A stretch of DNA of 56,640 nucleotides from assembly GCA_000934665.2 (NCBI GenBank), contig JYFJ02002464.1, positions 1-56,640 on the forward strand, written 5' to 3'. The number at the start of each line of letters is the position of its first letter. Position 1 is the stretch's first letter. Below the pieces are notes generated by a model. It saw only the letters and a list, made by a program, of their open reading frames with translations. It was not told the origin of the DNA and did not search any database. The stretch is from Catajapyx aquilonaris (Eukaryota). Position numbers and translations under genes: made by a program. Below, one piece after another: positions 11,775 through 54,678 of this stretch.

Positions 11775-14700
11775 TCACATTGGGCTGGTTCTGGCTGCAG
11801 TGATGGAGTCTCGGGATCCAGCCCGCATCAGTGCCATGTTCTGCATCCTTATGGAACTGCTGGGCCGCCTTTGCTCATCGTCCCCTTGAAACCCCTGATG
11901 GAAACCATGGATGGAAACAACAACAAATTAGTCATTTCACTTTGTTGGTTTTAATCAATTTTTACCTGATTAGTAATCCCTATGCTGTTCCTGCTTGCGA
12001 CGGACATGCTGCTCCTTGAATCCTGCCTGCCTGGCATGAACTGGGACATCCTTCGCTGCTTTTCCAGGACCGAGCTACGCCTCTGGGCTACTGCGTGGAG
12101 CGTGTCTCTTCGAAGGGACAGGTGCCGCATCACTGATGGGCTGCCTCCTGCGCCCTCTCCTGATACCAATGAGTTGAGCCTCTTCCTGACTGCAGCATCC
12201 AGGTTCCCGATTGGAACCTTCTTGTTGTTTGACTGTTGCCTATCCAGCTGTTGGATGGTCTTTCTACGGTCCAGCCTGTCTCTTCCAATGACTGGCTCGT
12301 CGTCATCTTCTAGTCCTGTCATCTGCTGGAGGTGATGCACGGCCTCCACAGCATTTTCTGGTGTTATGTTGCCATCCTTGTCAACAGCTTGCTTATTCTT
12401 GCAGCAGTCCAGTCTGGTCAAGGACAGAATGTGAGCAAAGGTCTCTTTACGATGGATGAACATTGCCACAAATTGAATGATCATGATCAGGGCAAAGAAG
12501 AAGACGAAGACAAGGCCAATGGGTTCCAGCTGCAAGTACTCCTTGTTCACAGTCACCTGTTGGATGAAAATGAAAAATTAATTTTGTCCTCTAAAAGAAT
12601 TGTATTCTTCATACCTCGTGTCCAAATTTTGCATAAGTCATGTTGACTTTCACTCCAAGGGGCCATTGGACGTGAATCATGTCCTTATTCAATTGCAGAA
12701 GGAATACGATCGTCACAAACAGGGAGTTCATCATGATGAATGCAAACACACAGAAGTCTCGCAATTCCTTCAAATCATTTTCCAGTTTTTTCTAATGGTT
12801 TCAGGTGGAAAGATGGATATGCAGCATCACAGAGCATGCAATGAAGATACAATATTGCATTAGATTAGACGGATAGATTTAAGCAAAATTACGTGATCTA
12901 CGAGCTAATGTCCAGTGCATCGTCTTTGACAAAAACTAATTTCAAGCAACATTTTAAAATAAAAACCTACTCTCTGCTCTTTATTTTCATCAATTGGATG
13001 CAGGTATTTTTTAATAAGCTCGTCCCAAAACTGTATCTCTGGAGTGGAAATGTAGTCCACAGCTCCAATTCTTATGCTCTTGTCTTCTATCCAGTAGGGA
13101 TTCTTCAGGTCATCCCGATATGTCCTCGGTTCTAAATTACATAGAGTTCAGGGAAATCCATTCATTAGGAAGTGAATTGAAAAGTATCACATGTGTCAGA
13201 AATCTTCAGCAATTATGTTACACATATTATATGACACATTATTAGCACCCATATGCTGTGGGAAACATAATACAGTATGTAGATGAAACACCATAATTAT
13301 ATTTCACCTACCAGTAACGGATTCCTTATCTGTCTCGTCATCCTCTTGCGACTCTACTGCAGCCTCCTCCGCCAAAGATGCCAAATGATCTGATGACAAA
13401 AGACCTCTGCCGGACATAGATTTTCTCCTCATCATTTGTGGATCAGAATTTCTCTCCAAGGAATCCATCCTTTTTGTCAATGTTTCCATAGAGTCGGCTA
13501 TCCTTAGCAACTGCTTTTTCTCATCAACAGGCTTCTCATGAGTGCAACACATGACTTTGAACAAGCCAGCCAAGCTGAATTCTATTGACCCTTCTTCATC
13601 CTTTCCATTGCCGGGCAGCTGGTTCAGGAAACCCAGGAGACCTGTCTTCTTGGCTGCCTTCTTGGCTTCCTCAGCTTCACGCTTCTCTTTTTCCACCTCC
13701 TTACAGGGGAGAAATGACATGCATTATACATCAGATTACATCTAATTGTTCCACATGCATTTTTGGCTGTCAAAGCAATACCAAGCTGTATTTTTTTACA
13801 GGGCCTTTCTAATCTCTCTACATCTGCTTAACAAATTGGCACATGCAATCTGTCATCTAACATGAATACATCATACAGTATAATTAAGTTACCTCTTTGC
13901 TCTTCTTTGTGGCTGCCTCCCTGGTACCCCAGGTGACGTTATTGAGGTTGAAGAGTGAATAGATCATGAGGAGCAAATACATCGATGGAACCACGCAGAG
14001 ATAGAGGAATCCATGCATCAAGCATGAAAATTCCTTTGGATGCATAATTGCTGTTATGACAAACACCATTATAATGAAGAACATGGACAGGCTGGAAGGA
14101 GCAAGTATTCCATCTCTTGTTATTTCCAGGATGATGCCAACTAACACAGCTACCATCACCAGTGCATAAAATGTACTAAGCACCTGGGCTACAAACAACT
14201 GGAAAAAATTTAATGGTGTAAAAGATCAACCCAGCACCACTTACACAGATGGAATTCAAACAACTCACCTGAAACTTAGATTCAAAGAAGTAGCATATAA
14301 CCATAAAGAGGAGGATCGGTATGACATTGTATTGGAAGGAGCTCCATTGGTCTATGTTGAATGCAGCCACGAATGCTCCCACCAACATTAGGAAGATTGT
14401 TCCTGGCCCAAGTATAGTGCCAACCATAAGCATGATCTGGTAGGAAACGTATGGCATGGAGATATTGTCATTGATCACAACAGTCCGCTTATAGTCCATT
14501 AATAGGTCCATGATGTTGGCCATGGTGCTGGGAACCCATCGCCTACGCTGATTGTAGAATTCATTGAAACCTTCAGGAGCATGTGTATAAGCATCACTTG
14601 CAGCAGAGTATTCTACACGGTAGCCTCTCTGAAGCAGGAGGGTGCATAGCCAACGGTCCTCACCTGCATAGAAGAGTATTAAAAATTTGTTTAAACAGCA

Positions 14701-17700
14701 ATAGGTACAAAGAAGTGCATGTAATGTTCTGGTCAAGTGCAGCTGCATTATTGCAGCATTTTATTTTCTCTAAAATAGTCATTTGAAATTAGACTCACCC
14801 TGATCATACTGAACGTAATCCCTTGCCTTTTCAGGCTTGATGGTGTACTTTGCCATTACATTTTTGTCCATGAGTGCTACAGCCCTAAAGAGCGAGAAGC
14901 ATCCTGGACTGCAGAGTACACATCCAATAACATGTTCCGTTGCCTTCTGCATCCAGTGACCAATGGCATATTCAAATTTTTGATACCAAACCATTGGCCC
15001 AGCTCCAATCGGGTGAATCCGTCCGCATGCAGCTCCTAGATTGCGATTCTTTTTCATCAGATCAATCAGCATGTGTACTGCATCTGGCTGAAAGTCAATG
15101 TCACCATCCAGGGCCAGAAGAAAAGTATTTTCTGCAACAATCGCCTTTCGTTCAACTGCTAGAGGCAGCTCCATCAGCTTGTGTCCCAGCAGGTAGTACA
15201 TGTACATTACCTGTAAAAAAATAAAATTGTTGTTTCTAGCAGTAAGCACCCAAATTAAGAATTGCAACATTTTGACAATACCTGGCTCCAACGCTTGCGA
15301 TGTCGTATCTTAGCCTTATTCTTAAGATGTACAATCATCTTGGTTTTTCCAGGAAGTGTCCACTCAAGACGTCCTCCATACGGAGTTGGAAATGCTGTTG
15401 GAGGTCGTACCCTCAGATTCAGGCCATGGACATGTGATGCAGCCTCATCTGTGGTCCTCATGAAGTCCTTCACATAGATGTTCACAGAATTCTCAGTCTC
15501 ATCTTCTTCGCTCATCACAAAGGCATCGTCAAAAAATATGTGTGTCTCAAACTCATAGTAATCTGGAACCACAACTTTCAATAGCTCTTGTGCATTTCTC
15601 ATTGCACTATGGTGTGAATCCATCCGCATGATTGACTTGAGCATTTCCATCATTTCTTCCCTGGTTTCGTGCCACATTGTTGCACAAGCGTAAATTCGTG
15701 GGATCTTATCCCTTTTGCGCACCTCACCTCCATCCTCAGCAGCATCAGTGACCATTTCAGCCAACACTGTTTTGCTCTTGGTCGTGTAATAATGGTCCAT
15801 AGGCTTTTCCATGTCATCCTTTTTGATCTCGCCTTCATCATCATCATCCTTCCTCCGGTTCATGGCCAATGACTGATCAACCAAAAATGCAGAATACATC
15901 GGAGCTGCAAATAACTTCTCAGTGGTTGCAAGACGCTCGCATTTGGGAGCCCATATATGCAGTGTAATCCAAGTCTGTGAGAACAGCCAGAAAAGCCAGA
16001 CATATGCATGCTGCTGAGAAATAAAGTTGTCGAGGAAATTTCCTAGAGGACATTCCCAGTACAAGTAGGGTGGCATCTGCCCATACATGAAGCAGGCATC
16101 CTCATTTCGGACTCCACATGCAGCTATTAGGAAGGTAATACCAGCAGGGACAGTCAGGCTGATAGGAAATGCGAAACTGAACCCTTGTATGCAAATTTTG
16201 CAGGCAAACTTTCCTGAAAACAAAAATATAACCAGTCATTCAAATTATCAACGTAGCAGATAGCATGCTGCTAAAAATTAGTCCATAAACTTACCAAATA
16301 CATAACAAAGCCAGGTGGTACCAACTTGAATCAAAAGGGTGTAAATGGCAGCATTGGCCCATGAGTAGTCATATGTAGCTTCATGGACAGGAGAGTTGCT
16401 GCTGGCCAAGTCAGAGAGTCTTCCAGGAAGGTCCGCCTGCACCTCAGTTGCATTAATATGATGCCTGTTGAAACTCTCAGAGAACATTTGAAATAGGTTT
16501 CCAATGTTCTCATTGTTCACATACAACAGTAGGAGCATGGACATGAAGAAAAGCATCATCTTCCATATGGAAATGAAGATGTAGGAGAAGTATCTTGTTT
16601 CCTGCAACCGTTCACTCACTCTTGCCATCTCTCTCACAATACCTGTAAATTCAGTGGCTACTAGTGATATTCTGAAGCATCAAGACACATCATGTAATAA
16701 CCCTGTGTAAGTCGAAAATTCTACTGATTAAAAGTGACATTTTAAAAGCTGACTGAGTCATACATTTTCTGATAAACGCTACATGAGAATATTACAACAA
16801 TCTCAAGTCACACAAGAAATTCACTAGCATTACATGCTATAACATTAATGCAACATCTAAATGTGCGCATGCTACTCATGTGCTCTCAGGCATTGCAATA
16901 TTATTTGAATTATTCCAATAAACCAAAAAAATATTTCGAGCCAGCCACTTTCCAATAAATATTTATGGAAAGATATACACCAACAAGATCCATACAACAA
17001 AACATTAATTTGTGCAATACTCACGAAGGGGAGAGTTCCTGTCCACATAGTTTTCCCACCAGGCAAATGAGATGAGGAATACTGATAGAGGAATGAGCCA
17101 CAGACTTCGGGCATTGTGGGTGTCCACCAGGGGCCATACGAAGAAACTAGTTGCTTGGGCGAGAATTGCCAATACGTCTATCACCACCTTTACTGCATAG
17201 AGCGGTTCAGTTGTGCTTCGTGACATCAAACCTACAAAGTGATTGTTTTTACACTTACCTCATAAATACACTATTGAAATACCGGTAGCATTTTTATGAT
17301 ACATCAATATTAGTCTTAACTAACCCAAGATCCCAGGCACAATGCACACGCAGTTGGTGAGCATGAGCCCTTTGATAATGTCAAGTTCTGGAAGAATCAT
17401 GAACACGAGGATTGCAAGACCCAAGGTGTGGAATGTTTCACAGACGAAGACCAGAAGGAAGTCCACAGGCATTGGTTTTTTCCAGGACTTGAACATGCAT
17501 ATTCTGGAAGACCGAAACAGAGTTTCCAACTCTGGAACCAAGTAGGCAAAGAGCAGGCACCAAATCCACTGGATTCGTTCTAAGTCTGGTATCTCAAATG
17601 TGAAGTCCTTGTCTGCTCCTGCAATAATAATTGCATCAACCACGCGGTCATTTACTGATTTTTCACACTCATTATGTTGCCATAATTATTCAGAAAGAAA

Positions 17701-18738
17701 GATTTGGCCATAAAAATAATATTTCCAGATTTCCCCACAATGTAACAGTAGTGAAAATTCACCAAAATTGTTGATTTTATTCATAACTCTATTTTAACTT
17801 ATTTTCTACTTGATAATTGGATTAAATTCAATGGCAATGTTTCATACATACCATATTTTTCCTTGCAGATGGGGACGGAGCGGTGGGGTCTGAGTTGGGA
17901 AGTCATGAGGAGCATGGTGCCCTTTGAGATCAGGCCACCACCAAGCACTATTGTGAATGTCAGGATGTACATAAACACTTTGAAAATCTTCATTATTGTG
18001 TCTGCAAGGCTTTGGTCTCTCATAGACCCTGAATCTTCCTTCGGAGGAGGATTTTGAAAAACGTCCCATTTTTTAATCGGCGATGATGCACTGCTGTTCC
18101 TGTTACTAATGAGAAAAGGAAGCATGATAGTTTTAGTGTCTAATGTATGCATGGGGAATTCAACAAAGCCTTCAAGAATATTAGTGGCAAATATACTAAC
18201 AGGAGTTGGTTCAAATCAACAAATAACTCTCTGGACAACCCTTATTATAACTCCTCTGACCATTATCACCAAGCATGATGGGCACAAATAATAATTTACG
18301 TGACCTGGTGTGACATACAGACAACTCATACACAAGAAAATCAGATATGATGAATTTTTCGGGAATTTTTCTGGGGATGGAGTCACCAAAAATATTTGTT
18401 GGCTAAAGCTAAAGATCGCCATCACAAAAAAACCTGCATTCACATATCAATCTAGGCTACTTTAACAAGGTGTGGCTTCCATCCCAGAATGGAAAATACA
18501 AAGAAATATGCGAATGGATTGCAAGTGCGTGTTAGCCGCACAAATGTGAAGTTGTCCTTATAGTTTTTCATCAGATTCATGTCACTTCTTAAAAAAATGG
18601 CGTTTTCACTTAATGTGTCAGATATACACTGAGATTTTCCTATCCTTACCTTGTTCCACATACGTTCTCTGCCAAAGGAGTGGTCTCATCTCCTGAAAAG
18701 TCATCTACAACCATGAATTCCCTCTCTAGATTCTCCAT
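11775..18738 (-). CDS. Chitin synthase, divergent tandem paralog with 14 coding exons and an intact frame
   Basis: Exons: 18738-18650, 18099-17852, 17618-17325, 17231-17025, 16642-16295, 16213-15282, 15210-14799, 14663-14269, 14198-13893, 13699-13312, 13131-12971, 12791-12615, 12556-11966, 11894-11775. Motifs [23 protein letters not shown] and TWGTRE are intact. The protein starts [22 protein letters not shown] and ends RTSPM*. Confidence 0.93.
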
Positions 18739-21524: not shown

Positions 21525-24500
21525 TCACATTTGGCTGCTTCTCCTTGTTGGAATCGGTCCTCCCATGCCTCCTCCGCCCATCTCCAGATCATGGAAGGAA
21601 ACAGACGAGCGTATTCCAGCTTGGGTCAGGTTCTGCATCCTCACTGACCCTCTGTCGTCATCACTTTCATATGCCTGGAAATATGTCAATTAAGGCCTAA
21701 CCAAATGCCACAGCATGACTTGAACAACATACTACACGCTCTCTTGTAAACAGACAACTTAGTTAACTACCTCAAAATTTTACTTTGGGTTCTCTCTCAC
21801 CTGATTGGCAATTCCAACAGGCTGGAAGACGTTGCCATTTGTGACAGAGCTCCTGCTGCGGGAACCCTTCTTGTTGTACTCATTGTTGGCTCCCAGCGTC
21901 TGCATCTGGGATGTCCTCCTCCTCTCGGCCAGAACTGAGTTCCGCCTCACTGCCAGTGCTTTGATAGTTTCCCTTCGAATAGAGAACTGCCTCATGTTAC
22001 CCAACACAGGGGTGCCCTCTGGCCCACCGTCTGCCTGGATGGACATGAATCTCTTCCTAAAGGCCACATCTAGTGTCCCAATGGGACGCTTCTTCTGCTT
22101 CTGTTTCTCCAGCTGGTGGATTGTCCTTCTGCGATCGAGCCTGTTTCGTCCTGAACTTGACTCATTCCCATCTTCATCATCCAATCCAATCAGTCTCTGG
22201 AGGTTACGTGCTATTTCGACAGCATTCTTGTCGATGAAGGCATCTTCAGAAATGTCATCCACTTTGCGGTTGCAGCATCCCAATTCAGTGGAGGCCAAGA
22301 TATGTGAGATGGTGCCAAATCGATGGAAGAACATGGCCACGAACTGGATGATCAGGATCAAGGCGAAGAAGAACACGAATACGAGACCAATGGGCTCCAG
22401 CTGGAGGTACTGCTTAGAGATGATCACCTAATTGGAATAAGGAAGTGCTTTCAAAAGGTATTCTTCACTAGAAATTCTGAGCCCTAACTTGTTGCACCTC
22501 TAACCTTTGCGTTATCAACAGAATGAAGCAAGTAAAAAATTTGTGCAACCGTACCTGATATCAATGAATTACACCTAATAAATAATTTACTTCTGGTGGT
22601 ATGAATAATGAACATTCAAGAATGGGTCTGTTATAACACATTATGTTGAAATCAATTCAATATTATCGGTCACAAAATATAAGCACCACCTTGCATTATA
22701 TGCTCTGAAAAATTGCTCAAAATTTTCATGATTGTAGTACAAATGCAAAGAGTCATAATATTTTTAAAGCATAAAAGTCCATCACATACAATATGCAGGA
22801 ATGGTATAACAAGTGCAAGAGACATGACAAGAATATGAAATTGAGAGTGCACCGTATCTAGGCATAGTAAATCAATCGCATGTGTCTCAGAAGGATAAGT
22901 GCTCTCCTGTATTCTGATAAGAAATGTGCATTGCAGAAGTGCTGCTAAATATAATCAATTTTTCAGAGAAGAAAGATAAATCACCTGCGATTGAAGGGTA
23001 AGAAAATGCATTCACGATAATAATTTTTTACTGGCAAGGAATAATCTAGTGTGTATTATAATTATAGGAAACAAAAAATACCTCTCGATAGTTCTGGAAA
23101 AATTACTTTAAAATGAAGTAGCTGTTATCTTCACACACTGTGTGAATGCCATTACATTAGTCAGTTAAATGTCTCCAAGGCAATCCCCCTGGGAAACTTT
23201 GTTCATGTACAATATTTATATTTACACTGACAGTTAGAAACTTCCATTTTTTTATACACCTGATAACCTGTTGTTACTCAAAACACAACCACAAATTTCA
23301 TGCAAATCCATCCAATTGTTGTAAATTGGACTGTACAATGTTACTCTCTGTGATACCCTTTCTATGTACAATATGCACTGACTCCTCTATACCACACAAG
23401 TCTACTTACTCACTGGTCCCCCTGAAAAAGAAGGCTTTCTGATTTACTGCCAGCAAACAAGATCTTTAAAAAAAAAACAACCAATGTGAAGTGACCAGGA
23501 TTAGCCAAAAGATGAACACAACTCACACAAAAGCAGAAAAGTCAGCCAGACCAGTCACCAGAGAGAAGTGAAAATAACGAGGGGGGTGGAATAAAACGGC
23601 AAGGCAGCAGTGTTGCAGAAAGAGAGAGACAGAGAGTGAATAATATCCCGGGGGAGGTGTGCCCAAAGTTCAGTTTGTACCTGTTCGGTCTCCTCCACAA
23701 CTGTGATATTGGTCTTAACCCCGAGGGGCCAGTTAATGTGAAGTTCATCCTTATTGAGCTGTAGCAGGAACACGATAAGGATAAAGAGTGCATTGAACAT
23801 GAAGAAGGCAAAGACTGACTTGTTCCTCAACTCCTTCAGTTCACTGGCTATTCTGGCCTGGAAATAATAGACACACTGTTTTGAAGCATTGGGATTGCAT
23901 GTCCGGCTTGGGCGTTGGGAGGTTTGGGATGGCGAGAAAAGGTAACCTCTGGCTACAAGTCCGCTGGTCATGATCGCATGAAAACAGAGTCGCAAGCACC
24001 ACGCACGCGAAAACCCAGATCACTCAATAAGGGGGGGACCTTACCTCAGAATCATCTGGTGAGAAAGAAATGTTAAGCTTCACCCCAAGTGGCCATCGGA
24101 TGTGAAGCTGGTCCTTGTTGAGTTGCAGCAGGAACACAATCGTCACAAACAGGCAGTTGATCATAAAGAACGAAAACACACTCCTGTCTCGCAAGTCTTT
24201 CAGACCAAGTGCGATTCGTTTCTGATTGTGTGCAGTGGTGGTGGTGATGTCGCATGCAAATAAAAGGTGGCGGTTTCATGCAGGTCATATATGTACAGAG
24301 TCAAAGAGTGAGACAGAGAGAGACTGAAAAATTGGGACTGCACGGGATTTAACGAAACAGACATGGAAACCTGTAAAAAACCAATCAGTAATACATCCGG
24401 GACCAAATTAATGAATGGTGCACTTCGTAAGTCACAATTATGAGCGGACTTGCCAGAGGAACTGTCTTCTTGTCAGCATGCTAGCAAGGAGACTTTTCAC

Positions 24501-27500
24501 TGCCCTTTGTGTCATACACCTCTCCATAAAAATTACGCTTTTAAAGCAATTTTCATTAAACATAGAGCTGGTTGAAAAATATTTTTCCTTTGGGTGTATG
24601 GTTATTTTAGCAATAGAAGATTTGACAGCTAATCTCACAACATTGTTTCACGCAGTTTTACAGAGGAATGCAAAATAATACACTGCACAAAGGGTAGTGA
24701 AGTGCATTGTTGTCCCCTCATCTGTCAGATGTCTATATCACAGCAGCTACATTATTTTGTACTTGGAACACATGCATTAATAAATTTGGTGTCACCTCAA
24801 AAATTATAGGACAAGTATTTGACACCAATATTCCTCGTCAGACTTGAATAAGCTTCCAGCAGACTAATGCATTGTAATTGCATGGAGAGTCTAGCTTACC
24901 TGCTGCTCAGGATTATCATCAATAGGGTACAGGTACTTCTCCAGCAGGTCTTTCCAGAATTGGATTTCAGGCCCTGACAGGTAATCAACTGCTCCTCTCT
25001 TCAAGCTCTTATCCTCAATCCAGTAAGGGTTGATCAGATCATCTCGTTCTTGTTTCGGTTCTGAATAGACACAACCATTGGCGTTAGGTACGTTGGATCC
25101 TGAACAGCCGTAACGTGTTGGATCAACCTTAACATGTCTCACCTAGTGACTCTGTGTCCTGGTCGTCGTCGTCATCCACCTGGTCCGCTTCTGCAGGATC
25201 CTCAGGTAATGATCCTAAATGATCCCCAGATCCCACTGCACCAGCACCACCAGCCCTGACAGAAGCATGGGAAAGAGACCTCCTTCGCATCCCCAGCTGT
25301 CCGTGTGGGTCCAGAGCCCTCTCTATTGTGTCAAGACGTTTCGTCACAGTCTCCAAAGAGTCAGCTATCCTCATGAGCTGCTGTTTCTCATCCACAGGTT
25401 TGTCATGGGTGCAAAGCATGCACTTGAAGAGGTTGGCAAAACTGAACTCAATTGACCCTTCCTCGTCCTTGCCATTTGGAAGGTTCAAGAAGGCCAAAAG
25501 CCCGTTCATCTTCGCCTTCTTTTTGGCTTCCTCAGCATTACGTCTGTCTTGCTCCAATTCCTAAAGAATGGCCAGATTTGGTTTTAGATGTCCAGGTTAT
25601 AGAAAAAGGTACAAATCAACGCAGTACTGACCACCTTCCTCCTTGAGTACACTTCCCGGGTTCCCCAAGTGACATTATTAAGGTTGAAGAGTGAGTAGAT
25701 CATGAGGAGCAAGTACATGGAGGGCACCACACACAGGTAGAGACACCCATGCATGATGCAGTATAACTCCCATGGATGCAAAACAGCCGTCACCACAAAT
25801 GTCAGGATAATGAAGAATAAGGACATGCTGGACGGAGCAAGCACTCCGTCCCTTTTTACCTCCAGCATGATGCCCACTAACACTGCGACCATCACCAGGG
25901 CATACATCGTGCTTAGAATCTGAGCTAGAAACAACTACAACCCAGTGTTAGTGCACGCATTAACACAATCGTTAACATTCTGTAAATAGTTGCAGACACT
26001 GGTAGTCACTTATTCAATCCACCAAGGGGAAACTTATTTAATGACCATCTACTAAAAAATACGGCTATTCAGATTTTCTTCATTCCGCTAAAACCAAACA
26101 GCAATGCAAAAGCGCAAGCAGGCAAAGCAGCAAGCATTTTTAAAAAACATCCTTACCTTCTTGGTCTTCTTGGTCTGGACCTCTCGAGTACCCCAGGAAA
26201 CAACGTTTAGGTTCGTGAGTGAGTAGATGATCAGGAGCAGGTACATGGAAGGGATGGAGAGGAGGTAGAGGCCTCCAGGTATAATGCACATGAACTCCTG
26301 GGGATGGAGGCATGCAGCAATAAAAAATGATCCGGAGAGGGCTATCAAGAAGATAGCTGATGGAGATCCTATGCCGTCCTCACCCAGCTGCAGCGCGGTA
26401 CCAACTATCACAGCCATCATAATCAGGGCATAGGCCGTTGATAAAATCTGAGCCACCAGGATCTGCATGCCACATTGCAAAACATAAATCGCACACAGAT
26501 AAGCACAAGCCGCACAAAACACTGAAGTTCTTTGGGACAATGCAAATGTTTGCATCGCAGCAACTCACCTGAATGTTAGACTTGCACACAAAGCAGACCA
26601 CCATAAAGAATAGAATTGGAATGATGTTGTAGTAAAACGAGGTCCAGTTGTCTATGTTGAAAGCAGCTACAAAGGCTCCCACCAACATAAGGAAGATGGT
26701 GCCTGGTCCAAGGATCGTACCAGCCATAAGCATCATTTGGTAAGCAATGTATGGCATTGAGATGTTATCGTTGATCTTAATAGTTCGCCTGTAGTCCATC
26801 AGAAGATCCATTATGTTGGCCATGGTGCTGGGAACCCAACGCCTACGTTGGTTATAGAATTCATTAAAGCCTTCAGGACAGTGTGTGTAGGCATCACTTG
26901 CAGCTGAGTATTCCACACGGTAGCCTCGTTGAAGAAGGAGCGTGCATAGCCAACGATCCTCACCTAGGTACAAATACAAATTATTCGACATAACACTCCA
27001 AAATACAACATTGTTATTGACTAGTGAATTGCAACTCACCCTGATCATACTGCACGTAATGTCTGGGTTCATCCGACTTGGTGGTGTATCTCCTCATGAC
27101 ATTATCATCCATAAGGGCCTTTCCTCTAAAAAGGGAGAAGCACCCTGGACTACAAAGGACGCACCCAATCATATGCTCAGTTGCCTTCTGCAGCCAATGA
27201 CCAATGGCGTATTCGAACATTTGGTACCACACCATCGGCCCACTCCCAACTGGATGGATCCGACCACAAGCGGCTCCAAGGTTACGATTCTTCTTCATCA
27301 GATCAATCAGAAGTTGCACCGCATTGGCCTGGAAGTCAATATCTCCGTCCAAAGTCAAAAGGAAGGTGTTCTCTGCCACAACCTCCTTGCGGTCAACTGA
27401 TATCGGCAGTTCCATCAGCTTGTGTCCCAGGAGGTAGTACATGTACATCACCTGAAAAGTGGAATCATAAATATCGCACTGACACACTACTTCACTTTCA

Positions 27501-30500
27501 TGAACAGCCTGTAAAAATCCAAACATTTGTGTTGCTTACCTGGCTCCAACGTTTACGATGTCGTATCTTGGACTTGTCTTTCAGATGGGCAATCATTTTA
27601 GTCTTTCCAGGTAGGATCCATACAAGACGTCCACCGTAAGGTGTTGGGAATTTCTTTGGAGGTCGTACCCTCATGTTGATGCCATGAACATGCGATGCAG
27701 CTTCATCCATAATGGACACAAGAAGCTGCACAAAACGGTTGACTACATTCTCGTCCTCGTTGTCATCACTGATTTCAAAAGCGTCGTCAAAGAATATGTG
27801 GGTCTCAAATTCATAGTAGTCAGGATCCACTATCTTCAGGTACTTCTGTGCATTACGCCTGGCACTTTGGTCTTCATCCATCCGGAGAATTGACTTCAGC
27901 ATCTCCATCATCTCTTCCTTCGTTTCATGCCACATTGTTGCACATGCGTAGATGCGAGTGATGCGGTCAGAGTTACGAATGTTGCTCTTTCCACCAGCTG
28001 GTGAACCACTGGACTCTGTCATCACTGATATGGTTTCATAATATTGAGACATTTCCGCATCCTCTATTGGTTGGTCCAGTAAATCCTCCGTTTTTACATC
28101 GCATTCATCATCTCGGCTCCGGTTCATGGCCAAGGACTGATCAACCAAGAATGCTGAATACATGGGCGACACAAACAGCTTTTCAGTGGAAGCAAGACGC
28201 TCGCATTTTGGGGTCCATATGTGGAGAGTAATCCAGGTTTGTGACAGGAGCCAGAGGAGCCAAACCCACGCATGCTGTTCGGAAATGAAATCATTGAGGA
28301 AGTTTCCACGAGGGCATTCCCAGTAGAGGTAATTTGGAAGCATCCCATAAAAGAAGCAAGAGTCTTCATTGCGGATCCCACAAGCCGCTATCAGCAAAGA
28401 GATTCCCACTGGGATCGTCAAACTGACAGGAAATGCAAAGCTGAACCCTTGGATGCAGATCTTGCATGCAAATTTGCCTGAAAGGAGGAACATAAATAAA
28501 ATAATTACAGTGAATCACTTGATATAAATGCATCAGACTCTCACCGAAAATGTAGCAAATGTAGGCAGCCACTATCTGAACCATGACGGTGTATATAGCC
28601 GCGCTGGACCATGACTTATCCACCAGCACCTCATGGAATGGAGTAGCTCCATTTGGAAAGTCAGATGGACTTCCAGGAAGGTTCCTCTGCAACTCAGTCA
28701 CGTTGAGGTCATGGGTGCTGAAGCTCTTTGTGAACATCACAAATAGATTCCTGACATCCTCTTGGTTCACATACATTATTATCACCATTGAGGCAAAGAA
28801 AGCAATCATCTTCCATACAGAGATGAAAATGTAAGAAAAGTAGCGGGTGTACTTCAAACGTTCCTTCACTTTCGCCAGCTTTTTCACGAAACCTGCAATT
28901 GACAAATGCCGAGCTGATAACGCTTTCAAAATCCATGTGCAATAATTTATTTGAAATTTCATTGCCTTGCAAGATGGCCAGTCATTATTTCTCAAATACT
29001 AAATTGCTCACATGTGAAAAGTAGAAATAGAATTACCTATTGGTGAAGCCTTATCCACGTAGTTTTCCCACCACGCAAAAGAAATGAGAAATACAGAAAC
29101 AGGTATGAGCCACAGGTTGTGGTTCTTGTGGCTGTCAACAAGCGGCCAAAGGAAGAAGCCACTTGCTTGGGCCACGATGGCCACAATGTCTACAATCACT
29201 TTCAAGCCACATCGAGACTCAGACCTGCTGCGAGAGAGAAGACCTGCAGAACAAAATAAAGAATTAGCAAAATATTATAATGTCAAGGATAATGCTGCAA
29301 TTAGTAAGATACTGACCCAAGATTCCAGGCACAATGCACACACAGTTGGTGAGCATGGCCCCCTTGATGACATCAAGCTCAGGAAGGATCATGAACACGA
29401 GAAGTGCAAGACCCACAGTGTGGAACGTCTCACAAATAAATACCAGGAGAAAATCTCCAGAAAGCGGCCTCTTCCAGGACTTGAAGACACATATTCTTGT
29501 GGCTCGAAAGAGAGTCCCCAGCTCTGGAACAAGAAATGCAAAGAGCAGGCACCATATCCACTGGATGCGCTCCAGATCTGGTATGTCGACTGTGAATTCT
29601 TTGTCCTGTCCTGAAATAGTAAGTAACATTAAGTATTTTCCCTTGGTATAGTCAACGAGGATTTAAAAGGTAATGATGCTTACCCCACTTTCGGTTGCAA
29701 TAGGAAATGTTTCGATGGGGTCTTAGTTGAGAAGTCATAAATAGCATCGTTCCTTTCGTAACAACACCTCCAACAAGCACAACCGCAAATGTGAGAAGGT
29801 ACGTGAACACTTTGAGCATCTTCACTGTTATTTCCATGCACCTCTGGTTGACCATAGAACCAGAGTCGGCCTCCGGAGGGAGAATCCGAAACACGTCCCA
29901 TCCTTTTGTTTCAGATTGACTGTGCTGACTGCAATGGAAAGAAAAAAATTAGTTACTTCATACATTTTTTGTCTATATTTTTCACACAATCAGTACAGAA
30001 CTTGCTCAGCATATGAATTATTTTTTTGGAATATAATTACCGGTCTACTATAGACAGTGGTTTAATCACAACAATTGGTATCTGCCATGAATGTTACATG
30101 AATGTTATGAGAGAACGAAAGGTGTGACCTGTCATTTTCCTTAAAAAAAACATGACTTATTGACAATTGTGAGGGAGAAATAGCCCGTTATAATATTACC
30201 TTTGTTAAAGAGGGTCAGAAAAATAAGTGATCCATTAATAAAATCTCATTCACTCATGAGCTCATTATAATGGGCTATTAAATTAGTTAAAAAGGATCAA
30301 GTATGAGTCAGAAAAATTAGTGTTTCATGAATAAAATATATCTTCAATCACGAGCAACTGCGACACCGATAATTTCAGAGCATCAATTTAAATGCCTGAA
30401 ATGGTTCCACTCTCTGACCTAGAAATCTCTTCAACGCACACACATCATCACTCATCAGTGCCTGCAAAATAAGCCCAAACCCCATTAGTAACGAAAATGT

Positions 30501-32755
30501 AATGTTCTGGATGACCTCAATTATTGCATTTCCTTTTCTTCGAGCTGCCACAGAGAGTCAGTGTTCCAGGCAAGCGAGTAAGAAAAAAAAAAAGGTAAAA
30601 GGGAGAGTGGTGATGGTGGCCATGAGACAAAACTTCAGCCTTGGATTCGGGAGCGGACGTCCGGCCCTTTCCGGACATTTTATTTACCACTGTGCTCCAA
30701 GAAGGAAATTCCTTCTGGACATAACAAGCCCTAGACCCAGCTTCGAATGGTGGTCACCCAACTTTCACCAGCTGCCTACGCAGCTATACCAGGAAAAAAA
30801 AATGACATCACTCCCAAACCAGTACCGGTGACTTGAACTCCAGAATGGATCATGATCCCAGTTACGAAACAATCAGTACACAAAAAAACGGACATATGCA
30901 AAAATGGCATGGAAAATGTTTGGTTGTGGTGGTGGGGGACTTATAAAGAAAATAAAGTCACGCAAACTATAGCAAACAGGAAGGCTTCAACTTTCTGGAG
31001 CGTGAGGATTGGCCACTTCCACGGGGACCTCGTTTTGAAAACTTTCGCCTTTTGCTGCCTTCTCTTTTATGGGTCGACCAACCGCCAATTTTTATATGCC
31101 AACCAGGTGGTGTCATCTCCTGAATCAACCAACTGGAGTGAACAATCCATGTATATTTAGGGCATAATTATAGGGTCAATGTTCCGTGACGGAAGTGCTC
31201 TAAATCCAGAGTTGACCTCATGGGAAGAAAAAGAAAAGACCGCAAAGATGTGTTATTATTACAGCATGATCTGAAGTACCGCGAGTGGGCGGGATTTTGC
31301 GCAAAAAATAAAGTCGCAGGTGAAGGTCTCTCAGGTTTTCAATGCCATACAAAATCGTCTTTGAATAGAGGAGGGTTCCAGATGGGCAGATTCAAAGGTC
31401 AAAGAGGCCCTCTTGCATACAAATAGCCTCCTCAGATCTATACTTGTGTATCAATTTATGTACAGTACTTAGACTCAGTTACAAGAGTATGGTTGGCAAG
31501 ATGTGTCCATTAGAAATCTAGGTCCTGTGTGATAATTCAAAGTCCTGCTTCCTTTTCCAGAAGCTAACCACACCCAAATAAGAGGCCGCGCCCATTTTCT
31601 CTGGCCAGTACACCCTGGCAACAATCCCCCGTTAATTCCGTCTGTGCACGAAACGATATGACCAAGGACGACCGGCGGGACACTAATCTCTGGTCGGCCC
31701 AAAGTGGTGCAGTACACACACTCATTTAATTGGACAGGGCGTGTCTCAATAGACAATAAAAGCATCAGGAAGTGGGCATTCATCCATCAGCCTCGAAATA
31801 TTTTCTTGGGTCTGTAACCTTCAATAAGGCAGATATGGAATGTGCTTCAGTCAATAAATATTATCTTGTCAATAGAAGACTATACTAAAAATAGTCGGAC
31901 TTTCATTTCCTGGAGAAGTCTCTGCTTTTCCCAGATAAACAACGTGCCATGACAAGGAATTCGCATCGGTCACTTGCTGCTTGCGTAAACAAGTTGCACT
32001 CCAGAAAAGTTTGCAAACTGGGGCAAATTGCATGCACCAACACGGTATATAATAGCAAACGACAGAAACATTGTTCAGTATACACAGTACATAAAAAGGT
32101 GACATTCTGGCCTTTTAGAAGGTCGAGTCATAAACAACCAGGCGACTTTTAAAATCAAGACTATAGACTTTGAGGATAGAAAAATATCGTGGGCCGTGAA
32201 TTCCCAAGTAGACCAGCTTGTACTGATCGGCCTTTCAAGGACGGAAAGCGACTTGGAAGATGGAGAGAGAGAAAAAAGGCTGAGAAGTACCGTTACCAAC
32301 TGCACATACTCAACTCACGTATGTGTAACTGTACTCGAACTTAACGGTATGCGTATATAAAAACACATCGAGAGTGCAAGTGTTGAGATTTTAATTACCT
32401 TCACGGGTTTCTGGTTCGCTTTTATTACACTAACCGGATTATTTAGTGGAACACTTTCTTTAACATATGTATACACAGTACAAGGTGTTCGGATAATTTT
32501 GAATTTGTTGCAAATTTTTCATGATGGTCGAGTGATTCGCGAAATAAGTGTAGCAATATATGCCCAGCTATTTTCACAATTCGATTTCTAATAACTCAGC
32601 AGAGGTTACACCAATTGAGTTGCATCATTGGCTGTTATGTTCTACTTGTTTTCTTACCTTCCACCATAAATATCCTGGGTCAGAGGTGTTGTTTCGTCCC
32701 CTGAAAAATCGTCAGGGTCCATCAGGTCCCGGTCCAGGTTTTGCATGCTGGGCAT
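21525..32755 (-). CDS. CHS1: Chitin synthase 1 (class A, kkv-like) with two pairs of alternative exons
   Basis: Exons: 32755-32658 ([32 protein letters not shown]), 29928-29684, 29610-29317, 29243-29037, 28892-28545, 28477-27540, 27451-27040, 26963-26569, [26462-26157 or 25934-25632], 25560-25143, 25060-24900, [24221-24045 or 23857-23681], 22427-21801, 21674-21525. Motifs [31 protein letters not shown] and SWGTRE are present, with a charged coiled-coil-like segment after the 5-TM cluster. Confidence 0.95.
23681..23857 (-). CDS. CHS1: CHS1 alternative 177-nt exon, downstream copy (8a/8b-type)
   Basis: cag|[59 protein letters not shown]|gtac; 59 aa, phase 0-0. Confidence 0.92.
24045..24221 (-). 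CDS. CHS1: CHS1 alternative 177-nt exon, upstream copy (8a/8b-type); its frame is absent from the ORF track
   Basis: cag|[59 protein letters not shown]|gtaag; 59 aa, phase 0-0. Confidence 0.92.
25632..25934 (-). CDS. CHS1: CHS1 alternative 303-nt exon (end of 5-TM cluster to WGTRE), non-canonical copy
   Basis: tag|[36 protein letters not shown]...[36 protein letters not shown]|gtcagt; open frame, phase 0-0. An alternative donor 3 nt earlier is possible. Confidence 0.85.
26157..26462 (-). CDS. CHS1: CHS1 alternative 306-nt exon (end of 5-TM cluster to WGTRE), canonical CHS1-like copy
   Basis: cag|[38 protein letters not shown]...[37 protein letters not shown]|gtaagg; 102 aa, phase 0-0. Confidence 0.92.
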
Positions 32756-43271: not shown

Positions 43272-46200
43272 CAGCTGGTGGCCGCATTCTTCAGCTTCTT
43301 GATCTCCTTGGTGGCCCAGTTGGCCAGAGTCTTGGTCTTGATAGTGCGGGAACGCCTGCCTTGCGTCAGTAACTCTGAGATTGGCTCCGTGTCCAGGAGG
43401 AGGAGCATCTTCATCCCGAAGGTTTTACACAGGTCCCTAAATGAAGAAACTTGGATGAGCAAGTTTGGCCGCAATGCGTGTAACAATTACCGACTTCCTA
43501 ACGTACCCAATGAGACCCGCACAAGAGGCCACGTTGTTGTCCGATCTCTCAGCATCCTTCCCAACCTCCGTGATAAACTGGACAATGAAGGGCACCTGCG
43601 GTTCCAAAAGGTTGACGTCTGCGTTGGGAATAGGCCCATCCCCTTTCAGTCCCTGGATGATGCCTGCGTATGCCTCCAGACAGCCCTCCCGCAGGTCCTT
43701 CAGGTACTCCATCATGTCAAAGTTGGTCTTGTCCACCTGGGCCTGGGAGGCCTGCGCCAGGGTGGACAGAACCACATCCAGGTACTTTTTGAAGTCTGGG
43801 CCTATCGCTAGGGCTATGTCGCCAAACACCGTCAGAATCTGGGGCTTCACTGATCGGTGGACGTTGTTGTTCTGTATAAGACATAGACGTAATGAATAAC
43901 AACATCATCCCTTTAAATATACAAGTACAAATGCAGACAATGATGCAACTTACCCCTAAGTTCTCCAGCAGAAGCGTCATAATCTCATCACAGTACGGCA
44001 GGATCTTATTGCCCAGCGCTCGACAGATATCACCAATGAGACCCACTGATGCTCCACACACCTTCAACACACAATTTCAAGTCATTGCTAACATCCGATT
44101 TATTCGGAATGAGCTACCATACCTGATACTCCGCATGGTTCTTCAAGCCGAGGGCCAGGAAAGGCTTGAAGGCATCCATGTACTTGAGGAATTTGTCACC
44201 AAGAACCTCGGCCAGAGTGGCCACGGCCATCAAGGCATCCTCCTGGACTCCTCCAGATTTGCATGAGCTGGAATTGAACATCTGGAGCAGGGCTGTCATA
44301 ATGGTGTCGGATATCTGGGGAACATCTGCAGTGGCCACCTTCCTCAAGACAGACTGCAGGACAGCACACAGGGATGACTGAAGGTCATTGTATTGCGCTC
44401 GGTCCGAGTTGGTCTGGATGTGAGACTCCATTTGAAGGACCTGCTGGAGCCGCTCGAGAATGATCATAGTGGTGCGCTGGACGGTCACGTAGCAATCAGT
44501 GGGAGAGTTCTTCACCAGCTCCATAAGGGCCTCATAGGCTGCGTTGCGCATGTTGGCTTGGGCACCATCTGGCCTGTCAGTTGTTTCTAATAAGCGCTGA
44601 ACAATGGGTTCGAAGAACTCAGAGAGACAATAAGTGGCTGGTTCTGGGCCATCCTCGCTGCCCTTGGCCGACTCGTAAGCGGCTTCTGCCAGACTGCTGA
44701 ATGCCCAGCAAACGTTTGTTGCGACTCGTGGTTCCGCTTTAAGTCCAGCCACCAGAGCTTCAAGTAAGGGCTGGAAAAATGAGCAATATTAGAATAAGTT
44801 GGGCTGCGCAACAAGTAGCAAATCACCTTGAAATATGCAGCATTGACGGCAGCATCAGGTATGATCTCGCACACCCTCCCAATGGTCCATGCGGTGGTAT
44901 CCTTAACAACTACGCTCTCATCGTGCATGAGCTGGATCAGGGTGGGCATGGCTTGTTCTACGAGTGGCTTGAGCTGGGTTGGATCAGGTCCCTCCAAGAT
45001 AGACCCAAAAGCCATAACTGCAGCGTCCCTATAGTGCCAGTTCTGACTCTTGATGTTCTCCTTGACAAATGGCAGCACATGGTCGACAATGTCATCCTCG
45101 CAACAACTGGCCAGCAGCGTGAGGCAAACCCCTGCAGCCTTGCAGGGATTCCAGTCATCATCGTCGTCATGCCCTTCAACCTGTTTGGTAAGGGTCTCCA
45201 TCAAGATAGGGACTAGGTACTGAAGGGCTCCCTTGGCATAAAATCGGGAGGAATGCTGTGGGGGACGGCCTAACTCCGCAGCCTCCGATGCTTCGATGGA
45301 CAAGTCGACCTCTTCATCACACACATTCGACCAGAATTCTATCCCCTGAAGGGCAACCTCATCCACGTCTGACTTCATAGCATCCAAGGTGATCTGGGGT
45401 CGGAACAAAATATTAATTTTACACTGTTTTCAAGCACCAAGTCGCATATTATCAACACTTACGGCAAATAGTGCAGGTCCCATGTAGTGCTCCATATACT
45501 TGTAGTATAGGGACATAATCTTGACGAGGCACTGGAGGGCAGCCACTCTGACCTGCGTGTCGGAGGATTGTGTGGCCTCACACACCACCTGCATGATAAA
45601 GTGCCGCTCGCTGTCCTTCTCAAAATTAGCCCGGGTGAATTCAAGCGAGTTGAATAGAGCATTGGTGGCGGCCAATCGCACATGGTTTGAAGGCTCATCA
45701 CGCTTCATCCCGTGAATGATGGCAGTCAGGATCTGGTTTGATTGCGAGACCAGCACTTCCGCTTCGATATCCTGTGAGGGAGACAAATATGACGATAATG
45801 GCCTACATTTTTAAGAGTAACATTCATCCCTGACTTGACATACCTGACAGATGTATCCAATAGCTTCTAAGGACGCCTCTTTGACCATCTCAGTGCTCCC
45901 GGCCTCCGTGACATTGTTGACTAAGATGGTAATAAGCTCAGGCCACTGTGACATCGGCAGTTCGGCAACAGCTACGTATGCTACACACTGGGCTGAGGAA
46001 CTGGGCCGATTCATCTCGGTTCCCAAGGCTCCTAGGATGTTCTTCTTTACGTACATTCGCACCTCCTCTGGGAAGGCCAGCCATCGTTGCTGGTACTGGG
46101 TCTTCAAAGTGGAGTCCTTTGATGTCAATGTATTCTTCAGCTGTAGGCCTGCAGCCATCCGGGCCACAGGACTGTTGCCACCGTGTGCCAAGACGTCCGA

Positions 46201-48380
46201 AAGCATCTTGACAAACTCGGGCTGGTGAAAGAGAAACGCCACATTTACAGAGTGAGTTAATGCTTTGTGTGCACAATGACATCAGGTCATTACGATAATT
46301 ACGAAGGACATGAACTTACCAGGTTGGTCTGTGCCGCATGCTCCAAGAATGCTTGCGCTGATTCAAGCTCATTTTTGTCTGTTGAGATAAAAATGGAACA
46401 TGTCAATCAGCATATCACATGTTTATAGGAGCCTCTGACTTTATATCAGATGTATACAAGGTTATGCAGCATATATTTCATTCACAGAGTACTATCAGAC
46501 ATAATGGACTACACATGAATTTATTGCACACACATCCACTTTTTCCCTATTCCTGGTGACCCTCACAAACTAACCAGTTCCTTTCTATTCATTAACTCAG
46601 GGGGGGAAAAAAAATTCACTGTCAGCTCCTCCTCATGTTACATAACACTGATTACAATCCAGGGTCAAACCTAAACCACTTCCTGCGAAACTCTTTGGGA
46701 TACACACGCCTGTTGTCACGAATCTATGCTGTACAAAACCATCCACAAAAATCCAAATCCACTAAAGTGTTTAGTTGTGGTATTGTTTAAAAATACAAAT
46801 ACAAATGTTGCACTTATTTTTAACTTGGGCATCCTCACATCGTCCAATGTAATTCTGTTTTGTTAACTTGCAATGTATTTCATTCATTTGATCGAGATCA
46901 TAAAATCAGGCGAGAACTGACACAGAAGAGCGGGTCTCATCATAGTAAACATACCACTTCGTATAAATGACCTTGCATCAGGGCCCAAATGGCTCTCTAG
47001 CTGCTGCCACATAAATCTGAATAGAAATAGGTTGTCCTGTATATTGATTCAGCATTATACGCACACAGGTCCACTACACTGAAGCTAATAGGAATTGGTC
47101 TGCGTTCACGTCACAGCTTCCGCTCAATTTCCTCCCAAAATTATATCCATTCCTATGTTACCAGAGCAACGTCTGATGCATCTGTCGGCACCTTGGCAAC
47201 AGTTCAAAGTTCATTAGCAAATGATGCACTTGGGCTGAAACACAAAGTCACGTCATTGGTCCTTCTATGGTTATTGATTGAAAAATACTCTTGCCCTTGA
47301 AACTATTACCACTGCGACTTGATTCAACAAGTACTTTGCCTCAACTTGGTAGCAACGTGGTGAAATGGACTTGACAGCATCCATCCTTACGTACCTAAGG
47401 CATACCATGCTTAGTACTTCTAAAGGTAATCTTGTACAGATTGATCAAGCTTTAATTTTCTTTGAGTATGCATGTTTTGACATGCACGTGGCACAAAAAT
47501 GCACCGAGTTGAAACCTTGCAATATTCTTGAAAGGGTATTCACAGAGACAAATTGCTGTAATTTTTATTCACATACATTCCTACCGCCACCACAAAAATT
47601 AATTGTAACAGCCTCGGTGCAGCTCTGTATCTATTAAATTCTTTACAGTGGCAGAACCACGTAACGTAAAACCCCCACCCCTCACACCTTGACCTCAGAC
47701 AAGTAGAAAAGCAAACAGCCAGTAAAAGCCTCGCTATCCAGTTACTTCTTGTATTTCCGAAAGTGTCGATCAAATACAGTCGACTCCTGATCTGACAGCC
47801 TCGGTTTGACCCACATTGAAAGGCTGGTCCTGCCATTTACGACCTGCATACTTGGGTGTATGAAACCTCTGTTATAATACGCTGTTTTTCACAGTCGCTT
47901 GAAGCCTCGCATTTCACCGTCATATTTTGTAAAAACCCTGCGGAACATTGCATTAGCACATATCCCTTACACATTTGTACAGAGATTGCCATTTTTTTTA
48001 AAACTACCTGTTAGTGTAATTAGTTTCGCTTGTAAATATTCTATCCAGTTTCCACGAGTGTGCAGGGTCATTTGCTATGATATTCATGCGGTACCGATCA
48101 TTGTTTCCACTCCTAAGTAGCACATTTTCTATTACGGAGACACCATGGCTACAGGCCTGTTCCATTGCAGTGTTCTATTGGCAATCACCCCCCATTATTT
48201 TTCCCTATCCTTCGTCCTCCTGCACTTTATTTATCTTTCCAGATTCCCTTTGCTGGCCCCCCGCTGGTGAAGCCGGCATGGAACGCGACCTAGGCCTAGC
48301 TACCCCTGCCCTTCCCCATTACCTGGCGAGACGGTCTTTTGCAGCACGGCGATGAGCTGCATGGTCTGCTCCGGGTTCAT
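43272..48380 (-). CDS. KPNB1: Importin subunit beta-1 (karyopherin beta-1, Ketel orthologue); the last codon is split by an intron
   Basis: Exons: 48380-48323, 46378-46320, 46221-45844, 45771-45463, 45393-44827, 44770-44123, 44061-43954, 43871-43507, 43436-43272. Diagnostic segments [49 protein letters not shown] and [11 protein letters not shown] are present. Confidence 0.96.
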
Positions 48381-54200: not shown

Positions 54201-54678
54201 TATTCTCGCCCACACACAGATCGTTGGCAGTTGGTTCAGGAAACTTTGCACAATCCAAGCTCTCGGGCCACTGGAACCCAAACTTGTTCATGAGGCTCTC
54301 GCACCCATGCCTTGCAGACAGACACAACGAGCGGCAGGGCGGTATGGCCCGCTCTATAATAGTGCACACCGGAGCGTACATGCTGCACAGGAAAAACTGC
54401 AGGTCCGGACTGCACTTGACCTTAACCAGCGGGAAAAACTGATGCACCTCAAGCCCCGCATCTTCTTGCTTCTGGTGGTTCAGCAAATTGGGCATGATAG
54501 TCTCATTGTACTGTATGTCCTTACACAGCGGGATTGTGATGGGTTCGCACCGCCCGTGGTGCGGAAGGTTGTCCCGTTCCGACACCCGGCTTGACGTCTG
54601 CGTCTGGCCCGATCCAGCCACGCACATGACCACCGCAATGAGCCCCCACATAATCAGGCACGTACTCACACAGGCCAT
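51290..54678 (-). CDS. fz: Frizzled receptor, Fz1/2/7 class
   Basis: Exons: 54678-53980, 52558-52179, 52071-51633, 51553-51290. Signal peptide, then [46 protein letters not shown]. 7-TM motifs [27 protein letters not shown] and [10 protein letters not shown]. KTxxxW motif (KTIVSW) and a C-terminal EVHV*. Confidence 0.95.

Follow-up and report, generated by a model that had tools for sequence, protein, structure and literature searches.

Growth regulators of the benzoylurea, etoxazole and buprofezin type have chitin synthase 1 (CHS1) as their target. Insect CHS1 genes harbor a pair of mutually exclusive a/b exons of 177 nucleotides (nt), each encoding 59 amino acids (aa), and the accessible part of the respective publication names two alternative sites for CHS1, i.e. 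this 177-nt site and a second-exon site in Lepidoptera (PMC3619095). The known residue of benzoylurea and etoxazole resistance (I1042 in Plutella, I1017 in Tetranychus and I1043 in Culex) is placed in helix 5 of a five-helix cluster in the portions of two further publications that were at hand (PMC9604260, PMC5601912). Here, we analyzed a stretch of 56,640 nt from Catajapyx aquilonaris (contig JYFJ02002464.1, assembly GCA_000934665.2; in the following referred to as the window), which contains two chitin synthase genes located in tandem and in the same orientation on the minus strand (tblastn). Our analyses indicate that gene 1 is a CHS1-class gene, which carries, in addition to the 177-nt pair, a probably old and apparently undescribed pair of presumably alternative membrane-module exons, termed A and B, and that gene 2 is probably a tandem duplicate, which contains the B form only. 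While the 177-nt pair of CHS1 is already known, the A/B pair is apparently new; the literature searched, which did not extend to subscription journals or supplements, yielded no description of alternative exons at the five-helix cluster.

Gene 1 is homologous to CHS1 proteins over the full length (tblastn), shows 84% identity to Ischnura CHS1 over 581 columns and is placed within the CHS1-class clade. QRRRW was found in the open reading frame at 26380-27093, and SWGTRE is located in exon A. Based on the catalytic core, the tree position and the presence of the 177-nt pair, gene 1 is an arthropod class A (CHS1/kkv) chitin synthase. Both of its 177-nt exons have AG/GT borders, and their size and position match those of the insect CHS1 a/b exons as given in the accessible text of PMC3619095. 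Gene 1 therefore carries two separate clusters of duplicated exons, namely the classical 177-nt a/b pair and the 306/303-nt A/B pair. The coordinates of these and all other features are listed in Table 1.

Exons A and B have AG/GT borders, are both of phase 0-0 and are separated by an intron of 222 nt. Exon A is preceded by ...gcatgcag and followed by gtaagg, exon B is preceded by ...cactaacactgggttgtag and followed by gtcagt, and all splice sites of the pair are GT-AG. Since the flanking exons end and start in phase 0 (at 26569 and 25560, respectively), either exon alone preserves the reading frame. The peptides quoted in the original prediction, a note made from the letters of the window alone, are indeed present on the minus strand at exon A and exon B. 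A comparison of the window against itself (tblastn) revealed exactly three copies of this block: exon A, exon B and one copy in gene 2, the paralog. Exon B is 50% identical to exon A over 113 aa (E 2e-32), and the paralog block is 72% identical to exon B over 108 aa (E 7e-51) and 56% identical to exon A, so that the similarity among the three copies is far beyond chance. Each block shows three hydropathy peaks and ends in (S/T)WGTRE. As adjacent homologous exons of near-equal length and the same phase, each with its own splice sites, A and B form a tandem-duplicated exon cluster.

Table 1 Features of the two chitin synthase genes in the window. Positions are those of the window; the minus sign denotes the minus strand.
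Feature	Position	Strand	Description
Gene 1, CHS1/kkv-class chitin synthase	21801..29912	-	coding exons mapped by homology (tblastn with Ischnura CHS1, P0143, and Schistocerca CHS1, P0203)
Possible further 5' exon of gene 1	32660-32719		candidate
Constitutive exon upstream of the A/B pair	26569..26964	-	ends ...SNIQ, phase 0, at 26569; 5' border approximate
Exon A	26157..26462	-	306 nt, 102 aa; three hydrophobic segments, SWGTRE; I at the resistance position (YLLS-I-PSMY)
A-B intron segment	26088..26098	-	11-nt perfect complement of 25577-25587 in the intron after exon B
Intron segment with CTAAC branch-point-like sequence	25943..25953	-	11-nt perfect complement of 25875-25885 inside exon B
Exon B	25632..25934	-	303 nt, 101 aa; three hydrophobic segments, TWGTRE; V at the resistance position
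Constitutive exon downstream of the A/B pair	25150..25560	-	begins ELEQD, phase 0; charged segment; 3' border approximate
Classical CHS1 alternative exon, upstream copy	24045..24221	-	177 nt, 59 aa; one transmembrane helix
Classical CHS1 alternative exon, downstream copy	23681..23857	-	177 nt; 62% identical to the upstream copy
Gene 2, CHS1-class tandem paralog	11960..18074	-	single copy of each of the two exon types (tblastn)
Sole block equivalent of the paralog	13893..14198	-	306 nt, B-type; 72-74% (aa) and 77% (nt) identical to exon B

The two exons differ in their conservation. Among the matches listed (120 of 611; 880 candidates), exon A shares 82-93% identity with CHS1/kkv proteins of insects and decapods. 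For exon B, the best single-block match reached 61% (Ischnura elegans 'chs-2-like', P0007; 148 matches among 223 candidates), and in an exhaustive HMMER scan of 1.84 billion representatives its best identity was at most 60% among the best 150 of 956 matches (E<=0.001). The best match of the paralog exon was 65%, again to P0007 (22 matches among 193 candidates). Exon A is very strongly constrained, and the evolution of exon B is fast. One alternative is that exon B is a decaying relic without a place in functional mRNA. In favor of this, the polypyrimidine tract of exon B is weak, its branch exceeds that of the paralog exon in length, and its peptide has no Pfam match, although exon A itself reaches only an E of 0.0074, which falls short of the cut-off. 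However, exon B contains an open frame of 101 codons with in-phase AG/GT borders, CTAAC is located 13 nt upstream of the acceptor, and all family-wide residues (HP.E, PSMY, WGTRE) are retained. The exon is under purifying selection, with a ratio of nonsynonymous to synonymous substitution rates (dN/dS) of 0.14 in comparison to the paralog exon, and B-only products are found in other species (see below), all of which makes a relic very improbable.

Two such blocks are read through in 12 of 231 database proteins, which belong to Hymenoptera, Orthoptera, Phasmatodea, Thysanoptera, Decapoda and one ostracod; hmmsearch yielded 15 proteins with two block domains. These two-block proteins look like gene models reading through both exons. 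In 11 of the 12 (three ants, Megachile, Diachasmimorpha, Gryllus, Dryococelus, Timema, Frankliniella fusca, Homarus and Chionoecetes), the first block is 82-88% and the second 38-55% identical to exon A, and the blocks are adjacent except for Frankliniella fusca, where a spacer of 32 residues lies between them. The twelfth, the ostracod model, contains two non-A blocks. Proteins with the B block only were identified inside CHS1 clades, i.e. Penaeus chinensis isoform X2 (P0081), which is located with Homarus and Procambarus, and Frankliniella occidentalis 'isoform B' (P0024). The thrips clade comprises two further B-only proteins, the unnamed P0017 and P0071 (1617 and 1626 aa); since these are encoded on contigs of about 6.4 kb, their templates are intron-free and most likely mRNA. 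Based on these protein models, the exon pair is present, with the order unchanged, in decapods as well as in several orders of insects, and B-only products are on record. The order of an A-like block followed by a divergent block in CHS1 of these groups suggests that the A/B duplication is old. Two of the hymenopteran models, Megachile rotundata kkv isoform X3 (P0124, 1662 aa) and Diachasmimorpha longicaudata isoform X2 (P0003, 1660 aa), carry the two blocks one after the other and exceed the usual CHS1 by about 100 residues, which points either to occasional inclusion of both exons or to artefacts of the prediction.

The relationships of the blocks were analyzed in a careful block tree of 62 rows and 102 columns, the deep branches of which are unsafe given this number of columns and the very unequal rates of A and B. 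In this analysis, 'CHS2-like' denotes nine rows, two of them named (Ischnura and Ephemera) and seven unnamed; the list was fixed after the first quick tree, and the two named rows, which are RefSeq or GenBank entries, were classed as B solely as insect proteins outside the CHS1 clade, with none of the nine named as CHS2 of Tribolium, Manduca, Aedes or Drosophila. Exon A falls into an A-type clade (89/87), which together with its identities to CHS1/kkv bears out the CHS1-type character that had been assigned to it. Exon B groups with the paralog exon (100/94), and this pair has a weakly supported position (88/78) next to second genes of copepods and an unnamed protein. Besides a malacostracan B clade (99/91) and a thrips B clade (97/92), the tree contains an insect clade of 14 rows (96/91), in which second blocks of CHS1 (Gryllus and the three Hymenoptera Diachasmimorpha, Megachile and Acromyrmex), the sawfly protein P0074 and the nine CHS2-like blocks are mixed.

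Exon B might also be young and local, i.e. a fast-diverged, lineage-specific copy of A or a paralog exon, which was put into an intron of gene 1 by unequal exchange or gene conversion. Both genes are adjacent and in the same orientation, and the closest relative of exon B that we found is the paralog exon. In the approximately unbiased (AU) test, forcing A, B and the paralog exon into one clade was rejected, but only marginally (log-likelihood difference (dlnL) 29.9, p=0.046); this argues against a grouping of A with B. Moreover, second blocks at the same position and in the same order are present in 11 other CHS1 models from distant taxa. A fast copy of A would also need to re-acquire states, which are seen in molluscs and other non-A blocks. 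With regard to an exchange between the genes, the nt identity of exon B and the paralog exon is 0.77 (synonymous divergence, dS, about 1), and the 144-codon catalytic exon likewise shows an nt identity of 0.77 between gene 1 and gene 2. Since the exons of the block are as diverged as the catalytic exons, a recent transfer did not take place, and we consider a young origin of exon B to be improbable.

Next to its B-type exon, the catalytic region of gene 2 points to a close relationship with gene 1. The catalytic tree, which was built from 66 rows and 581 columns located upstream of the block, recovers gene 1 and gene 2 as sister genes with a support of 99 in the Shimodaira-Hasegawa-like approximate likelihood ratio test (SH-aLRT), and the same result was obtained in the careful catalytic tree of 34 rows and 578 columns (99/95), in which the genes of the window are sister to springtail genes (73/92). 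The branch of gene 2 is longer than that of gene 1 in the catalytic region (0.28-0.30 vs 0.04). A C-terminal tree (LG+G4, 320 columns) locates both genes inside the CHS1-class clade without resolving their mutual position. As stated in the original prediction, the segment after the block is retained in the paralog, with 58% identity to gene 1 over 120 aa. We also considered gene 2 as a whole-gene orthologue of CHS2. Forcing it together with the nine insect CHS2-like rows in the catalytic region costs 44.0 log-likelihood units (AU p=0.001), whereas in the control, in which the nine CHS2-like rows alone were forced as a clade, the cost was 15.5 units (AU p=0.105); this candidate was thus rejected. 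Because gene 2 is the sister of gene 1 and cannot be joined to the CHS2-like proteins, we conclude that it is a CHS1-class duplicate, which retained the B exon alone. The simplest reading is that a tandem duplication affected a CHS1-class gene, in which both exon A and exon B were already present, and that only B was retained in the copy; one splice form would thereby have become a separate gene. Of the earlier evolutionary model, the local half, according to which the paralog is an externalised B form, is well supported. The counterpart of the 177-nt exon is present as one copy in gene 2, at about 12612-12791.

Other lineages contain genes of a comparable composition. The Neodiprion lecontei protein annotated as 'chs-2-like' (P0074, 1547 aa) is located in the hymenopteran CHS1 clade in both the catalytic and the C-terminal tree (100), yet it carries a non-A block, which is located on a long branch. 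It may represent another CHS1 duplicate, in which the B form became fixed. Springtails have an A-type and a non-A gene (P0051 and P0235 in Allacma fusca, P0026 and P0028 in Orchesella). These springtail genes group together in the catalytic tree (99) and are separated in the C-terminal tree, which could be explained by an independent duplication or by gene conversion; since the two trees disagree, we do not claim independent duplications in springtails.

The original prediction had gone further and ascribed a CHS2-like signature to exon B, consisting of DGxLAPSS with NLNNVSWGTRE. We therefore counted the respective motifs in 277 distinct blocks, whereby the proportions are biased, as the sample was gathered by similarity to exon B. 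DG..AP[ST][ST] occurs in none of the 113 A-type blocks and in 50 of the 164 non-A blocks, and conversely [ED]DG.GSP[ST] is found in 109/113 A-type and 5/164 non-A blocks. The first motif is hence confined to non-A blocks, but it is not specific for CHS2, since it is also carried by a mollusc, by second genes of copepods and springtails and by the second block of the cricket CHS1. NLNNV does not discriminate between the classes (17/113 A-type and 31/164 non-A blocks). Because DG..AP[ST][ST] is shared with a mollusc, it is probably ancestral; accordingly, GEDGIGSPS is a derived mark of exon A, and DG.LAPSS looks like the ancestral state. A phenylalanine before NLN (in the context ..S.F-N-L-N..WGTR) is present in 79 of 164 non-A blocks, in none of the 113 A-type blocks and in neither of two mollusc blocks. 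As it is missing in the molluscs, no other state is a better candidate for one that the non-A blocks share as derived.

These counts and the block tree bear on the broader proposal that an ancestral pancrustacean or arthropod chitin synthase produced A- and B-type enzymes by splicing, that insect CHS2 is the externalised B form and that exon B is of the CHS2 type. The 14-row clade, which unites second blocks of CHS1 with P0074 and the nine CHS2-like blocks, and the distribution of the phenylalanine before NLN are in line with this proposal, and a clade of exon B, the paralog exon and the nine CHS2-like blocks is not rejected (dlnL 14.7, p=0.17). The accessible part of a reconciliation study from 2026 puts the kkv/Chs2 duplication at the pancrustacean ancestor (PMC13449613), with which the presence of A/B in decapods and insects is compatible. 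However, the opposite arrangement, in which all 16 CHS1-class B blocks form one clade without the CHS2-like blocks, is equally unrejected (dlnL 16.1, p=0.18), and the best tree places exon B and the paralog exon apart from the CHS2-like blocks, next to the unnamed protein and the copepod second genes. Furthermore, fast-evolving blocks may attract each other in the tree, the DG..AP[ST][ST] motif extends to a mollusc, and the sample lacks a protein named as CHS2 of Tribolium, Manduca, Aedes or Drosophila. Of the tree that the original prediction had envisaged, the part concerning exon A and CHS1 is thus recovered, and the clustering of B and the paralog exon with CHS2 is not; for the insect CHS2 half of its evolutionary model, neither the one arrangement (p=0.17) nor the other (p=0.18) is rejected. 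Taken as a whole, we consider the proposal rather unlikely. Exon B is a member of a broad non-A class, in which the insect CHS2-like proteins are found as well; a specific relationship between exon B and CHS2 is no more than possible, and the motif on which it was founded mostly represents the ancestral state. Tentatively, A/B could be an ancient second cluster of exclusive exons, dating back at least to the pancrustacean ancestor, from which the paralog, the springtail second genes, the sawfly paralog and perhaps CHS2 arose as repeated B-only copies.

Regarding the splicing of the pair, A and B are presumably used in a mutually exclusive manner in this organism, and A-only as well as B-only proteins exist in other species. 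Inclusion of both exons would add three hydrophobic segments and would thus be expected to invert the membrane topology downstream. The intron between A and B is, with 222 nt, too long for steric exclusion. Two perfect 11-mer complements are present (Table 1), compared to 0.16 expected, and two or more were obtained in 3% of 500 shuffles. If 26088-26098 paired with 25577-25587, exon B would be looped out; both the minimum-energy and the centroid fold of 25561-26156 contain this pairing (z -1.34). The hairpin of 25943-25953 with 25875-25885 is part of the minimum-energy fold and is not significant (z -0.24). A further complement of 10 nt (90%) connects 26101-26110 in the A-B intron with 26549-26558 in the intron upstream of exon A, which is not significant on its own. 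One of its arms and an arm of the pair bracketing exon B are 2 nt apart, which resembles the arrangement of docking and selector sites.

Several points weigh against an old, exclusively spliced A/B pair with a B-only duplicate. That exon B is used, and that it is used to the exclusion of A, is deduced from the genomic sequence. Both exons are multiples of three, so that joint inclusion stays in frame, and two hymenopteran RefSeq models (Megachile X3 and Diachasmimorpha X2) include both blocks. In comparison to shuffles, the folds provided no significant RNA structure, which would enforce exclusivity (z -0.24 and -1.34), and RNA pairing is retained as a mere lead to the mechanism. The end branch of exon B in the block tree is about three times as long as that of the paralog exon (0.29 vs 0.10), which could reflect relaxed constraint. 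The antiquity of the pair depends on 102 columns with asymmetric rates, and a lineage-specific origin is only marginally rejected (p=0.046). Finally, gene conversion between the tandem genes, instead of a young duplication, could account for the placement of gene 1 and gene 2 as sisters. Concerted evolution might indeed mimic sisterhood, yet the paralog exon stays B-type either way. Weighing these points against the exon anatomy, the models of other taxa and the trees, we favor the reading that gene 1 contains an old A/B pair and that gene 2 is its B-only duplicate.

If this is correct, the pair affects a central part of the enzyme. Solved fungal and oomycete chitin synthases align to residues 759-1082 of Ischnura CHS1, and the block corresponds to residues 986-1087. 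Since this alignment spans the block, the exon encodes part of the conserved membrane core and not an appendage. The block comprises the last three helices (3-5) of the five-helix cluster, up to (S/T)WGTRE, and the choice between A and B would swap the channel-side membrane module together with the inhibitor site, with the catalytic domain being common to both forms. Residue 1040 of Helicoverpa CHS1, which was used as a proxy for I1040 of Spodoptera, is the I of YLLS-I-PSMY and is located inside the block. At this resistance position, exon A encodes I, and exon B as well as the paralog exon encode V. The contrast between I and M at LLL[I/M]IYS, by which A and B also differ, was considered as the resistance site and ruled out, because residue 1040 precedes PSMY. 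In a Tuta absoluta protein (P0147, 1563 aa), M replaces I at YLLS-I-PSMY, i.e. at the position of the reported benzoylurea-associated change from I to M according to the Helicoverpa proxy.

The A and B isoforms may differ in function. If many arthropods, among them thrips, Hymenoptera, Orthoptera and farmed decapods, can express the V-bearing module, target-site diagnostics limited to exon A would see half the picture, and the isoforms might differ in inhibitor sensitivity and chitin translocation. Moreover, the window pairs a gene with two splice forms with a duplicate fixed for one form, by which the split between cuticle and gut chitin synthases becomes directly testable.

Outside of the chitin synthase genes, the window contains importin-beta-like exons of a neighboring gene at about 44117-46281 (IBN_N, HEAT, TPR_IMB1; best E 4.6e-60) and an exon with a Frizzled domain at 53887-54717 (Fz, E 3.7e-36), both on the minus strand. 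A single N is present in the window, at position 35281.

Compared to known systems, the A/B pair resembles the classical a/b exons of CHS1 in that both are tandem duplicates of near-equal length, located in the same gene and encoding membrane helices. In contrast to the classical pair, A and B are located two constitutive exons further upstream and encode three helices and WGTRE instead of one helix, and their copies are more diverged than the 177-nt pair of gene 1 (50% vs 62% aa identity). With the insect CHS2-like proteins, exon B and the paralog exon share ..DG.LAPSS.., the phenylalanine before NLN and V/I-PSMY after a non-LLS context, and, like CHS2 as described in the accessible text of PMC3619095, the paralog has no alternative exon copies. 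Unlike CHS2, however, the catalytic region of the paralog is CHS1-class and the segment after the block is retained (58% identity to gene 1), and in the best tree exon B and the paralog exon are located outside of the CHS2-like clade. A further parallel is provided by the muscle myosin heavy chain of arthropods, for which the available part of the source describes variants that are exclusive exons in one lineage and separate genes in another (PMC2257972). Here, by contrast, both states are found side by side, with A and B in gene 1 and B only in gene 2, and the direction of the change is suggested by the trees rather than by a reconstruction.

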